From: a virus
Taxonomy: Duplodnaviria > Heunggongvirae > Uroviricota > Caudoviricetes
IMG/VR virus record: IMGVR_UViG_3300006052_000001
Direction: 5' to 3' (one strand)
Length of the DNA stretch: 50,120 nt
Shown: positions 29,476-33,205 of the stretch, piece after piece
Layout: each line of letters opens with the position of its first letter
Position numbering within the stretch: position 1 is the first letter of the stretch
Notes under the pieces: generated by a model
What the model saw: only the letters and a program-made list of their open reading frames with translations
Told to the model about the DNA's origin: nothing
The model's database searches: none
Position numbers and translations under genes: made by a program

Positions 29476-29754
29476 ATGTCTTCTCTACAGCCACTTCAGT
29501 TTGGTAAGCAAAGTGTTCAGTCAATGACCGACACAGCACACCACGAATGGATGAGTCGCCTGCATAGTAATATGCAGACTTCTGCCCACGACCAAGGTTC
29601 TACTGCTGCCGCTCATTTTCACGGTACTTTAGCGCACAGTCACATGAAGCAGACAGGTATGTATCTTCCTGGTAAGTTTAATCATCCTGCTATTGTGGCC
29701 GAGAAACCAGCTAGACGAATACAATCAAGCCTATCAGCGATTGAGGAAAATTAA
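29476..29754 (+). CDS. Hypothetical His-rich protein with LQPLQF motif
   Basis: FHGTLAHSHM; N-terminal LQPLQF. Confidence 0.6.
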   Translation: MSSLQPLQFGKQSVQSMTDTAHHEWMSRLHSNMQTSAHDQGSTAAAHFHGTLAHSHMKQTGMYLPGKFNHPAIVAEKPARRIQSSLSAIEEN

Positions 29755-30338
29755 TGGCTAATTGGTGGGTAACTCAAAGTGGTGGTAATCCTGGTCCTGC
29801 CGTACCAGGAGGTACTACATATGGTGGTGGCGGTAGAACTGGTGGTAGTGCCGGTGTTGTTCAATATCGTTCACCACTTGATGCTGCACGCGCCGCTCAG
29901 GGAAAGCTACCTTATGCTGAGTATCCTGATGGATACCTTGGTACTATTATTGACCGTCAGGAAGATAAGCTTCTAGGCAGAATTCAGGAAAAGCTTACAG
30001 AGCGTTCTTACCAGCGTGGAGTACACAAAGGCGCTAAGATTTCGGCTCAGGACTACTTCTGGGATGGTAAGTCTATTGACCCATCTATGCGACTAAAGGC
30101 GCAAGCTAGAGCTAAGATGGAGGGTTACACTATGGATGTCAAGAGATATGCTCCAACGGGTAATCCTGTTGAAAGACTAGCTCACATGGGTAAGATGGGC
30201 GGCCTGTCAACTCCTGAGCAAATGGGAATGGCTAAGCAGTATGGTGTGTCTGTAGCTAAGAATCCGGTTGTTATAATCGACCCTGATCGTAAGGCAAGAA
30301 TGCAGAAGATGTTGCCTTCGTATGCTAGGACAATGTAG
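29754..30338 (+). CDS. Hypothetical protein with Gly-rich N-terminus
   Basis: Long ORF, coupled; ordered-looking core YPDGYLGTI...SYQRGVHKG. Confidence 0.65.
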   Translation: MANWWVTQSGGNPGPAVPGGTTYGGGGRTGGSAGVVQYRSPLDAARAAQGKLPYAEYPDGYLGTIIDRQEDKLLGRIQEKLTERSYQRGVHKGAKISAQDYFWDGKSIDPSMRLKAQARAKMEGYTMDVKRYAPTGNPVERLAHMGKMGGLSTPEQMGMAKQYGVSVAKNPVVIIDPDRKARMQKMLPSYARTM

Positions 30339-30348
30339 GAGGATTCTA

Positions 30349-30648
30349 GTGGAGACTAAGATAAGGGCTGGCGGCTCTCCTGGCAGAGTTGATCCTAGGG
30401 GAAATGCTGCTTCTAGAAGAAGACGTAAGGAAAAGCTACTTAGTGACCCTCAGTTTCAGCATAGTCCAGACCACGATGAACCTAACGTTCATTGCGTTCA
30501 TTGCGGAACAATGCTGACATATGATACAGTAGAACAAGATAGAAAAGTACCGGGTGGACCTTATGCATATCATAATATTCAGCCCGCTTGCAGGACTTGT
30601 AACGTTCTGCGTTCTAACGATACGACTTGGAAAGGTCCGAATCAATAA
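30349..30648 (+). CDS. HNH-type endonuclease-like protein
   Basis: GTG 30349 after AGGAGG; CVHCG...DRKVPGG.Y...NIQPACRTCN. Confidence 0.75.
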   Translation: METKIRAGGSPGRVDPRGNAASRRRRKEKLLSDPQFQHSPDHDEPNVHCVHCGTMLTYDTVEQDRKVPGGPYAYHNIQPACRTCNVLRSNDTTWKGPNQ

Positions 30649-31271
30649 TGGTTTATGTACATGGTGTAGACGTAAGTAACTACAATGGAGCATTCGACTG
30701 GGCTGCCCACAAAGGCACAATCGGTTTCGGCTTCGCAAAGGCAACAGAGGGAGTAGGCTGGTCTGATGCTTACTTCAATTACAACTGGAAGTCTATGAAG
30801 GACTTAGGAATTTACCGCTGGGCGTATCACTTCGCTCACCCTGGCGCTGATCCTAATATTCAGGCACAGAGGTTTGTTGAAGTTGTTTCAGCACAGGGGC
30901 TTGAGACAGGTGACAATTTCGCGCTTGATCTTGAAGTAACTGATGGTATGTCTGCCTCTCATATTGATGGATGGGCTTACGAATTCTGCAAGGAAGTTCA
31001 GAAGCTTGTTCATGGACACAGGGTTATTGTTTACACATATCCTTATTTCGCACAGACTAATGTTCTAGTTAGTTCTCACGACAGGTATCTATGGATTGCT
31101 AACTACGGTGTAGCGCATCCTGTTGTTCCTGCCCCTTGGACAGACTGGATGTTCTGGCAGTATTTCGCGCCGCAGTACGCAACACCTAACTCTTGCGATC
31201 TTAACGTATTCAACGGAGATGAAGCAAGACTAAAGGCATTCTGCACAACCACAGGTAAATTCACAGGTTAA
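30648..31271 (+). CDS. Endolysin, GH25 muramidase
   Basis: GVDVSNYNG, FAKATEG, AYHF, ALDLE, LWIANY, W.FWQY, DLNVF; TAATG coupling gives start 30648. Confidence 0.92.
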   Translation: MVYVHGVDVSNYNGAFDWAAHKGTIGFGFAKATEGVGWSDAYFNYNWKSMKDLGIYRWAYHFAHPGADPNIQAQRFVEVVSAQGLETGDNFALDLEVTDGMSASHIDGWAYEFCKEVQKLVHGHRVIVYTYPYFAQTNVLVSSHDRYLWIANYGVAHPVVPAPWTDWMFWQYFAPQYATPNSCDLNVFNGDEARLKAFCTTTGKFTG

Positions 31272-31280
31272 GAGAGTAAC

Positions 31281-31763
31281 ATGCCCGCTTATCAAGCACT
31301 GGGAGCGCAATTCCCAACTGTAGGACCAGCTAGTAATTACCCAAGAGGGCGTTCTGGTGCCAATGTTCCTAATTTTGCCGTTCCTTCCAGAACTAAGTTT
31401 CCTACGGCTGTAACTAGTCCTTCTGCTTCTAGAAATGGAATGCTCACAGCGGGCGGAACTGGTAATTTGCACAGCGGTAGTGCCAACAAGTCAGCTACTC
31501 CGCAAATGCATAAGCCTGGGTTCTTTAAGGGTGGTCCAACCAGCTTCCCAGCGTCTATGTCTCCTGCTCCTGGTGTTTCAGCACCACAAACTAAGAGCAA
31601 GTCTCAGCACGCTATTAAGCCAGAGAAAGCTGCTGGTAGTGGCGGATTGAAAGCAGCACTAGACAGAGCGACAACTCTTACAGAGAAAACAGCAGACGAA
31701 GTTATCAAGAGGAAGAGCGGCAACAATAGTAGAGTTCTTAAGCAGGTAACAGGAACTAAGTGA
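31281..31763 (+). CDS. Basic, disordered hypothetical protein
   Basis: Ser/Pro/Gly/Lys-rich; GAGAG RBS. Confidence 0.6.
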   Translation: MPAYQALGAQFPTVGPASNYPRGRSGANVPNFAVPSRTKFPTAVTSPSASRNGMLTAGGTGNLHSGSANKSATPQMHKPGFFKGGPTSFPASMSPAPGVSAPQTKSKSQHAIKPEKAAGSGGLKAALDRATTLTEKTADEVIKRKSGNNSRVLKQVTGTK

Positions 31764-31969
31764 GAGCTAGTGTTGGGCCAACATCAGAGCAATTAGCTTA
31801 TGGCGACTCTGTTGTTACCAGAAATCTGAGCAGGCAGCAATTTCACACGCTGCCTGTTTCAGCCATGCCAGGAGAGCAAGATGAGTATGGTCCTTTAGGT
31901 CTTTACGGGGAACCTTCATCTTCTGGTAGTCTTTACGGGTTTGGAGTAGGAAGTAGCATACCAAGATGA
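31760..31969 (+). CDS. Small hypothetical protein with LSRQQF motif
   Basis: GTGA overlap; motif at aa 23-28. Confidence 0.55.
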   Translation: MRASVGPTSEQLAYGDSVVTRNLSRQQFHTLPVSAMPGEQDEYGPLGLYGEPSSSGSLYGFGVGSSIPR

Positions 31970-32388
31970 GCGCTGCTGATGGGCTTAATTTTGCCCAATT
32001 CAGGGATAAAGGTAAGGCTGCTCTTTCAGCTATACCTCCGCAAAGAGCAGGAGTATTACCAGCCAGTACTGTAGGTCTTACGCATCACGACTGGATGGAT
32101 GATAACGACCAAGCTGCCGCTGCGTATGGTGATGCTATTTCCAGGGAAACATTGCCTCCTGCTAAGGTAGAGAATGTTCCTGTTGGTGACGTACACACAA
32201 TGCAAAAAGGTGTGTACAGAGGCGGCGTTCATAAGTATCTTGACAGAAAAACGCCTACAAATGAGTTACCCCAGGTTTCCAGAGTTGGCGGGAAAAACTG
32301 GATTGATGATGGTCACCACAGATACGCAGCTTTTGCTCTTGGTGGGGCAACGCATATTCCGGCTATGGTAAGGGATTACGATGCTTAA
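31966..32388 (+). CDS. ParB/Srx-like domain protein
   Basis: VENVPVGDVHTMQ...P.V......WIDDGHHRYAA..L.G...IPAMV. Confidence 0.8.
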   Translation: MSAADGLNFAQFRDKGKAALSAIPPQRAGVLPASTVGLTHHDWMDDNDQAAAAYGDAISRETLPPAKVENVPVGDVHTMQKGVYRGGVHKYLDRKTPTNELPQVSRVGGKNWIDDGHHRYAAFALGGATHIPAMVRDYDA

Positions 32389-33205
32389 TCCTTCGCAGTT
32401 CAATGAGCAGAATCCTATTCAGTATGGTCCGCAAATTAGGCCAAAGGAAAACTCTCAGGGTACTCTTTTTCGTGTTCATAAGTCCCAGAGAACACCAGAA
32501 TCAAGACAACCCAGAGGTTATTCTCCTGAAAGAATAAGAGAAATAACCAGTAAAACTGGTATGGCAGATTACAAAACCGGAAAATTCAGCGGTACATGGA
32601 CGGATATCCCTGATAATGGTGGTTTGTTTCATACCAAAGATGTGCAGCAAGTTGCTGAGACTATTGCTAGAAGTACCGTTCCGATGAGTGCTTTAGACAA
32701 TCTTAGAATAATGCCGGGTTCAAGGTCCATAGGAAGTGGCTCAGATTATCCTAGTACTGCTGGTGTATATGAGAAAAATACGGCTCTAGGTCCAGTTATT
32801 AAGATTGCCAGACATAAAGGGACGGGCGCAACAGCTATTCACGAAATAGGGCATCACGTAAATAAGGTTAATTTTGGCAAACCTACTTATGGTAACAGCG
32901 AAGATGACCCAGATTACGGAATGCATGAAATGTTACGTGGCAAAGACGAAGGTTCTGCTGATAAATATGCGGATACTCATGCTAGAGAACCTGGCTATAA
33001 AAGACTTCCTCATGTAAACCCTTCTTACGGTGACTTTCAACGTCCTGATGATTGGCACGCGGGTTACGGAATAAAAGACTTTGGAAGGCAAGAAGCATTT
33101 AATAATGGTTATATAGCAGCAAGATATGGAAACAAAGATTATTTTAGAAATGTCAGTCCTGAGCAATGGAAAGCACACGCATTTAAGGCGGATAGGTTAT
33201 TCTAA
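32381..33205 (+). CDS. HEXXH (zincin-like) metallopeptidase candidate
   Basis: TAIHEIGHHV with downstream E..AD; N-terminal LNPSQF. Confidence 0.55.
   Translation: MLNPSQFNEQNPIQYGPQIRPKENSQGTLFRVHKSQRTPESRQPRGYSPERIREITSKTGMADYKTGKFSGTWTDIPDNGGLFHTKDVQQVAETIARSTVPMSALDNLRIMPGSRSIGSGSDYPSTAGVYEKNTALGPVIKIARHKGTGATAIHEIGHHVNKVNFGKPTYGNSEDDPDYGMHEMLRGKDEGSADKYADTHAREPGYKRLPHVNPSYGDFQRPDDWHAGYGIKDFGRQEAFNNGYIAARYGNKDYFRNVSPEQWKAHAFKADRLF

Follow-up and report, generated by a model that had tools for sequence, protein, structure and literature searches.

A short peptide label shared by unrelated proteins in gene arrays of uncultured actinobacterial phages and its possible role in loading the phage head

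Why should a run of neighbouring phage proteins that are otherwise unrelated carry nearly the same six residues, in most cases close to their start? The question is raised by a 50,120-nucleotide stretch of DNA from an uncultured actinobacterial phage (IMG/VR record IMGVR_UViG_3300006052_000001; "the window" below means this whole stretch), in which a block of genes at about 29,476 to 33,205 encodes proteins with the hexapeptide L[SNQ]xxQF, here called the tag. A preliminary description of the block, made from its letters alone, had proposed that the tag either loads a set of cargo proteins into the phage head or marks them for processing. We found that the peptide is a real, selected and portable label that passes across folds and is confined to gene arrays. 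Our best single reading, offered tentatively, is that its likeliest function is to direct proteins that attack the host into the phage head.

The five hexapeptides first described were all recovered in frame in real genes. Across the six frames of the window the strict pattern matches six times, with five matches within 29485-32401 and the sixth (43900) in a non-coding frame. Five copies among the 85 window proteins stand against a mean of 0.19 when their residues are shuffled, and in 2000 shuffles the maximum was three (P(>=5)=0), confirming the suspected enrichment over background. The 80 other proteins have no strict copy, and the replication and tail proteins of the window lack it, as had been said. 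Codons differ between the copies, so the signal lies in the protein and not in the DNA, and the same difference rules out a motif acting at the DNA or RNA level.

The tag had been described as lying mostly near the N-terminus. This is true of three genes, all on the + strand: a 92-aa protein without a Pfam or PHROG family (29476..29754), which begins MSSLQPLQF with the tag at residues 4-9 (29485-29502); a 140-aa ParB/Srx-like protein (31966..32388), with the N-terminal tag MSAADGLNFAQF and LNFAQF at residues 7-12 (31984-32001); and a 274-aa gluzincin-like metallopeptidase, the HEXXH protein (32381..33205), which begins MLNPSQF with LNPSQF at residues 2-7 (32384-32401). It does not hold for the 69-aa protein at 31760..31969 (+), where LSRQQF occupies residues 23-28 (31826-31843) and no start codon lies nearer the motif, nor for a 108-aa HNH endonuclease (30322..30648, +), where the LSDPQF copy is internal (residues 40-45, 30439-30456) and no start codon is close to it. 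Membership of the HNH protein in the tagged set is uncertain because LSDPQF sits inside the stretch matched by HNH profiles; the gene has no orthologue in the loci that we fetched.

To the five strict copies a sixth can be added. The 160-aa low-complexity protein of 31281..31763 (+) begins MPAYQALGAQF, a variant one residue shorter (31299-31313), and this short form, L[GS]xQF, is also N-terminal in three HEXXH orthologues (P0008, P0012 and P0018), so that four consecutive genes (31281, 31760, 31966 and 32381) are tagged. Two near-variants had also been pointed out. VSPEQW, in the C-terminal part of the HEXXH protein (33152-33169), aligns with a conserved second copy of the tag at the C-terminal end of that family and can be read as a degenerate copy, and LNTQAF (29191-29208) lies in a 119-aa protein (29116..29475, +) for which no homologues were retrieved, a doubtful member of the set.

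The label extends well beyond this phage. When searched with a HEXXH-family profile, IMG/VR yielded 14 loci, metagenomes 23 and a Terracoccus genome one, and tags were counted in 34 non-redundant sequences (33 related loci plus the window, 426 kb). With an N-terminal tag defined as a start codon, [LIV][SNQT]xxQF within 9 residues and an open frame of at least 45 residues, these sequences hold 51, compared with 2 in the reversed sequences; codon shuffles gave 1.9 on average and 5 at most. The extended consensus is M-S-x-x-A-L-[S/N]-x-x-Q-F. Tagged proteins are 55-330 aa long with one domain each, and all-against-all BLAST resolves them into the HEXXH family and many singletons; those that can be named include ParB-like nucleases, an ADP-ribosyltransferase (PF03496, E=4e-9), PARP-like and GNAT-like proteins, and the remaining carriers are the HEXXH peptidase and mini-proteins. 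Searching IMG/VR by the DNA pattern of the tag alone, independently of the peptidase, gave further records with tag arrays. Up to 7 consecutive tagged genes were found in one fetched locus, and scans of five whole records placed N-terminal tags in arrays only, the other matches being internal to large proteins and representing background. Our literature searches found no publication describing this QF tag.

One of the related loci lies in a bacterial genome. On Terracoccus sp. scaffold NZ_KB911820.1 (921911-942396), a tagged ParB-like gene (MLNSAQF..., 8707-9555 of the locus) is accompanied by a HEXXH gene (9971-10738), and the position of this pair inside a 1.13-Mb bacterial scaffold of 69% G+C suggests a prophage or integrated element of the lineage in an actinobacterium.

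Conservation in orthologues, on which the original proposal had been made to depend, is seen in two independent families, the HEXXH peptidase and the ParB-like protein. Among 107 HEXXH homologues from metagenomes, the strict motif falls within the first 16 residues of 28 and a relaxed pattern in 40, and a second copy near the C-terminus is present in 25 under the strict pattern and 44 under the relaxed one. The part that is held constant is narrow: in the 43 homologues with an N-terminal Q-F/W anchor, F follows Q in 41 and L stands four residues before Q in 32, and the flanks vary. A word-based homologue search with the ParB-like protein returned the self-match only, and its relatives, 30 in number, required an exhaustive HMMER search. 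All ten of the closest small homologues (29-55% identity) start with the tag; MSAFGSLNFSQF, MSQQSLSPEQF, MVDLNPVQF, MELNASQF and MSAEEHLSPGQF are among the starts of this family. In the ParB family the spacing between the tag and the conserved element that follows it differs by 0-25 residues, which indicates that the tag behaves as a separate module. Paralogues of the peptidase also occur: one locus (L001, 8183-10900) has three in tandem, with the tag variants MTLNGQQF, MADLVGKQW and MVALTGAQF, and two others (L018 and L019) have two copies each.

The two conserved carriers can be assigned to known classes of enzyme. In the HEXXH family, H154, E155, H158 and E190 are invariant in 37 sequences and HExGH is present in 107/107 (HEIGHH at about 32840-32857 in the window), giving the HExxH and downstream Glu zinc ligands of a gluzincin in a predicted zincin fold, for which the fold evidence alone is modest. 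Its AlphaFold model (pLDDT 75.5) has its best structural matches among zincins (PPEP-2/3, thermolysin and lethal factor, Z 5-7), and the protein belongs to no Pfam or PHROG family. The ParB-like protein, whose gene overlaps the start of the HEXXH gene by 8 nt at its 3' end, has a DDGHHR motif; G116 and H118 are invariant in its family, D115 and H117 are at least 90% conserved and R119 is the majority residue, giving a DGHHR-type motif in a predicted ParB N-terminal-like fold. The window protein has no Pfam match at E<=0.01 and falls below the Pfam ddrB-ParB model, whereas related tagged proteins match ParBc_2 and DUF6551 and larger homologues carry ParB_N, ParBc_2 or ddrB-ParB. The same domain recurs in giant proteins, together with NUDIX, ParB_N and ART-PolyVal, with InPase, or with ddrB-ParB. 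It also forms the C-terminal domain of an 838-aa portal protein (P0122, PF04860), that is, a covalent fusion of portal and effector. A search for fused HEXXH forms of at least 577 aa found none, which is weak evidence. A second common motif follows the tag in two window proteins, AHHEWM in the 92-aa protein and THHDWM in the ParB-like protein, and in ParB-like orthologues this HH[D/E]W site is a conserved G-F-x-x-H-[D/E]-W strand.

The models bear on the claim that the tag lies in disordered sequence, which was only partly right. In the ParB-like model (pLDDT 92.6) a helix begins at residue 9, inside the tag, with values of about 95 for residues 11-20, so that the QF end of the tag starts a confident helix; in the HEXXH model residues 4-7 form a short helix in a low-confidence region. 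The hexapeptide is built like a helix N-cap carrying a hydrophobic staple, namely a hydrophobic residue, an S/N cap, two free positions, Q/E and a second hydrophobic residue. Judging from the models, the N-cap likely describes the conformation of the tag and not the reason for its distribution.

Two companion motifs accompany the tag, which we call tag A where the three must be told apart. Motif B, QGTLF or QGKLF, lies about 15-20 residues after the tag in 102 of the 107 HEXXH homologues, and QG.[LF]F was counted 46 times across the loci against 4 in the reversed control; in the window it is found on the HEXXH protein only (QGTLF, 32456-32470), whose own end is ...DRLF. As QG[TKR]LF, the motif also forms the last five residues before the stop codon in at least 8 mutually unalignable proteins. 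These include the ADP-ribosyltransferase of L007, a family that we call t1 (L008, L049 and L051), one HEXXH protein (L027) and proteins of 450-490 aa upstream of the portal gene in L005, L009 and L012. Motif C (GQLPLLxK or QLALPGME) stands after the tag in several proteins. The HEXXH family has GQLPLLxK as its consensus C-end, and 20 of its 107 members have a QLPLL-like motif. Taken as sequence patterns, motifs B and C resemble the beta-clamp-binding type (Q-L-x-L-F or Q-L-x-L-x-L), whereas tag A does not, and the whole system looks like a small vocabulary of terminal peptides.

Basic, poorly conserved proteins of 450-560 aa are encoded between terminase and portal in four loci (L005 4489-5847, L009 6353-7807, L012 7840-9249 and L008 5496-7178). 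Three of the four end exactly in QG[TK]LF, and the cultured Streptomyces phage Alone3 has none of them. We considered these proteins as a conserved family of tag readers and rejected the idea on their mutual identity of 16-22% and the lack of a Pfam family; given that poor conservation, they are more likely further cargo. Mimicry of the scaffold C-terminus by motif B was also discarded, as scaffold proteins in 10 loci end in ...AASQSRRGQ, unlike motif B.

In 10 loci the HEXXH gene is placed directly after the portal gene and before the genes for the scaffold-like protein and the major capsid protein, a slot that elsewhere holds MuF-type minor head proteins or prohead proteases. The arrangement is clear in L008, where the terminase gene (3087-4733) and the portal gene (8229-9983; phrog_64, E=2e-41) are followed by the HEXXH gene (9980-10858), whose start overlaps the portal stop, then by a gene for a 266-aa coiled-coil protein and the major head protein gene (11701-12711; phrog_1357, E=9e-58). 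In the same locus two tagged genes (18203-19443, minus strand) stand directly upstream of the tail-fibre and endolysin genes and in the same orientation.

The slot in these 10 loci, which the HEXXH gene of the window does not share, is that of a prohead protease, but the family is not universal in tagged phages. A 98%-complete genome with at least 3 tags (G007), whose portal and capsid are 93% and 95% identical to those of L008, gave no HEXXH match even at E<=1, while positive controls matched at E 1e-15 to 1e-30, and its gap between portal and capsid has room for a scaffold gene only. Neither was the peptidase found in a record with 7 tagged genes in a row (G009). The peptidase is therefore not a general reader of the tag, and the findings in G007 indicate that it is optional cargo and not a maturation protease. 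We accordingly rejected it both as a universal reader or processor, from its absence in these two records, and as an essential prohead protease, again from these absences and from the portal, scaffold and capsid genes of Alone3, which have nothing between them.

A single capsid and portal lineage (58-95% identity), the BRock-type head lineage, is common to every tag-bearing record sufficiently complete to be judged, and the capsids of BRock-like Streptomyces phages are 70-71% identical. Two features of the capsid genes were noted along the way. The major capsid protein (L008 11701-12711; L058 10516-11538; Alone3 gp80) has a conserved L-R-[F/Y]-E-Q-F at residues 45-50, an L-x-x-x-Q-F pattern like the tag, which also occurs in the tagless Alone3 and may be chance or a hint that the tag mimics a capsid contact. 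In G009 (C1:80932-82170; the record of L052) the major capsid gene is in two pieces about 200 bp apart with one in-frame TAA, which could reflect an insertion, an intron-like element or an assembly error.

What, then, is the label for? Of the zip-code proposal, the shared peptide signal on unrelated, cargo-like proteins has held up and extends to orthologues and distant relatives; for loading itself the support gained is circumstantial. Head loading is favoured by the identity of the cargo, the fusion of a ParB domain to a portal protein and the head-module position of the peptidase, and further by the tagged genes beside tail-fibre and endolysin genes in L008, the single head lineage and the precedents of T4 and P1. 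Tagged domains match the repertoire of polyvalent proteins, which have been proposed to be packaged and injected, with zincin peptidases as their processors (PMC5512222), and in P1 the DdrB protein, which combines ParB and peptidase domains, is a head protein (PMC9024508; PMC5512222). The label stands N-terminally on small effector-type proteins, within one lineage of actinobacterial myophages (90-116 kb) that have a BRock-type head. We propose that a single partner in the head under assembly, whether capsid interior, portal or core, would take up the labelled proteins, and that these would be delivered with the DNA. The tagged set would then amount to a "distributed polyvalent protein", with a common peptide in place of the covalent linkage of giant polyvalent proteins; the second label, QG[T/K/R]LF, and the third motif (QLPLL or QLALPGME), carried by some of the cargo, may bind the same partner or a second one.

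Several observations weigh against this proposal. The likeness of motifs B and C to clamp-binding motifs points to a partner in the host, and the QF end of the tag in the ParB-like model lies in a confident helix and not in a free tail. The tagged block of the window comes after the replication module and is away from the head genes, which lie outside the window. Alone3, the one cultured relative scanned whole (116 kb), has no N-terminal tags even though its capsid is 71% identical, so that the head lineage is necessary in our sample but not sufficient. No tblastn match to the HEXXH protein or to a distant member of its family was found among cultured phages, no candidate reader gene confined to tagged genomes emerged, and the common capsid lineage may reflect common descent only.

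The strongest rival explanation, which we consider unlikely, is that the tags, above all motifs B and C, dock on a conserved protein of the actinobacterial host, for instance the DnaN sliding clamp, and bring the effectors to host DNA or the replisome, whether they are packaged or not. QGxLF fits the general Q-x-x-L-F clamp-binding pattern, and its place at the extreme C-terminus of at least 8 non-homologous proteins speaks for such docking. So does the GQLPLLxK consensus at the HEXXH C-end, with its 20 QLPLL-like occurrences, since the proven clamp-binding motif of mycobacterial ImuB is QLPLWG (PMC10421592); a tag that stays constant across phages with capsids at 58-62% identity would also fit a slowly evolving host receptor. 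However, L[SN]xxQF fits no clamp-binding consensus, the motif carriers include genes embedded in the head module, and the likeness is one of 5-6 residues. Head loading and host-factor docking are compatible, as the proteins could be loaded first and dock after injection. A two-step code of this kind, in which L[SN]xxQF would load a changeable enzyme set into BRock-type capsids and QG[TKR]LF-COOH and QLPLL/QLALPGME would then dock the injected enzymes, including the zincin peptidase, on the host sliding clamp, would deliver the first entrants straight to host DNA; as a complete scheme we think it improbable. An explanation without any reader in trans is that the hexapeptide is a favoured helix start (h-[S/N]-x-x-[Q/E]-h), passed on by recombination as part of a shared 5' gene cassette and kept only for folding or expression. 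Its canonical N-cap form and the helices that begin at residue 9 of the ParB-like model and at residues 4-7 of the HEXXH model agree with this. We nevertheless hold it to be quite unlikely, as F is kept after Q in 41 of 43 anchored HEXXH homologues though the flanks vary, strict copies are absent from the 80 other window proteins, differing codons make a shared DNA cassette unlikely, the tag occurs on unrelated folds and also at C-terminal ends, and its spacing in the ParB family shifts by up to 25 residues.

Processing by a protease, the other role raised in the preliminary description, has been weakened. One rival explanation is that the co-encoded HEXXH zincin recognises or cuts the tag, and would in this way trim or activate the tagged proteins and itself; in our view this has a low probability. 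The motif is present at both ends of the peptidase, zincin peptidases have been proposed to process polyvalent proteins (PMC5512222), and every locus found with the peptidase as bait has it, usually adjoining the tagged genes. However, it is missing from tag-bearing records found independently of it, including G007 and G009, a cut 2-7 residues from the start would remove almost nothing, and no fused precursors were found, although this last point is weak evidence; in addition, no prohead protease is annotated in the head module of Alone3 from terminase to tail genes. The peptides could also be assembly labels that hold a non-covalent multi-enzyme complex together inside infected cells, through a hub protein or by binding one another, with no link to the virion. 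Several proteins with two or three motifs (the HEXXH protein, the t1 family and the ADP-ribosyltransferase of L007) suggest multivalent contacts, and the tagged genes form tightly packed, overlapping arrays. We give this explanation little credence, as the loci revealed no conserved hub gene, some tagged phages lack the HEXXH protein, and the QG[TK]LF-ending proteins before the portal are highly divergent among themselves (16-22% identity).

Known systems offer several points of comparison with a head-loading label. The cargo-loading peptides of encapsulins are usually C-terminal, with a different consensus and an experimentally defined receptor site. Like them, the QF tag is a short conserved terminal peptide on unrelated enzymes, and as a candidate it would likewise bind the interior of an HK97-fold shell. 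The capsid-targeting sequence of T4 internal proteins has been proven sufficient to bring a protein into the capsid, and the prohead protease cuts it off. As in T4, where this short N-terminal peptide is the only feature common to diverse small counter-defence and effector proteins (reviewed in PMC3012670), the tag is found at the N-terminus of otherwise unrelated small phage proteins and is portable between unrelated protein bodies; the two show no relation in sequence, and the QF tag is also found at C-terminal ends and with two companion motifs. In P1, an N-terminal signal of fewer than 30 residues sends an anti-restriction enzyme into the head (PMC9024508); this signal is known from a single protein, whereas the tag marks a set of unrelated ones. 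P1 DdrB joins a ParB-type domain to a C-terminal zincin peptidase, and the window has a ParB-like gene followed by an overlapping zincin-like gene, with the domains in separate genes. The polyvalent proteins described by Iyer et al. in 2017 (PMC5512222) have the repertoire and the head-gene association seen here (ParB, zincin peptidase, ADP-ribosyltransferase, HNH, GNAT and lysozyme), but they combine 2-15 disparate domains in each polypeptide, while the proteins described here are encoded by separate small genes with a common tag. Clamp-binding motifs such as QLPLWG of ImuB (PMC10421592) are, like GQLPLL and QG[TKR]LF, short, terminal and rich in Gln and hydrophobic residues; besides the misfit of L[SN]xxQF, the carriers here differ in being phage effector and head-module proteins and not enzymes of replication or repair.

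The contig that bears the HEXXH gene is 116,018 bp, and the DNA polymerase of the window is 45% identical to its counterpart in the BRock-like Streptomyces myophages. Baseplate and tail genes occupy 1-9 kb and replication genes 12-27 kb, and all genes at 27-35 kb are on the + strand and tightly packed. Between the tagged genes lie a 194-aa untagged core protein (29754..30338, +), which is also present in BRock-like Streptomyces phages, and an untagged GH25 muramidase (30627..31271, +; PF01183, E=1e-32; PHROG endolysin), a lysin suggesting a context of late or virion-associated function. Compared with Alone3, the backbone genes 27714, 29754 and 33828 are syntenic and the tagged genes, the HNH gene and the lysin gene are extra, so the tagged set looks like an accessory insertion. 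Cultured phages have no DNA match to the tagged block, and a scan of 25-40 kb for promoters and terminators found sites no more numerous than in shuffled sequence.

Two neighbours recur in related phages. At 27714-27989 (+) the window encodes a 91-aa SpoVS-family protein (PF04232, E=4e-21), a family unusual for a phage, and a SpoVS-like gene also heads the same block in L005 and in Alone3 (gp176). A pair of HAD-like and TGT-fold genes at 36103-37928 adjoins tagged or HEXXH genes in L005, L006, L014 and L040 as well, a linkage that persists beyond close synteny.

Should the tag prove to be a loading signal, one could read directly from sequence which effectors are injected by a large group of actinobacterial phages that is common in the environment, and dozens of tagged mini-proteins, so far uncharacterised, would turn into candidates for counter-defence. 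Foreign proteins could then also be carried into Streptomyces phage particles by means of the tag. The polyvalent-protein strategy would have a non-covalent form as well, in which a peptide replaces domain fusion and cargo genes can be swapped singly.

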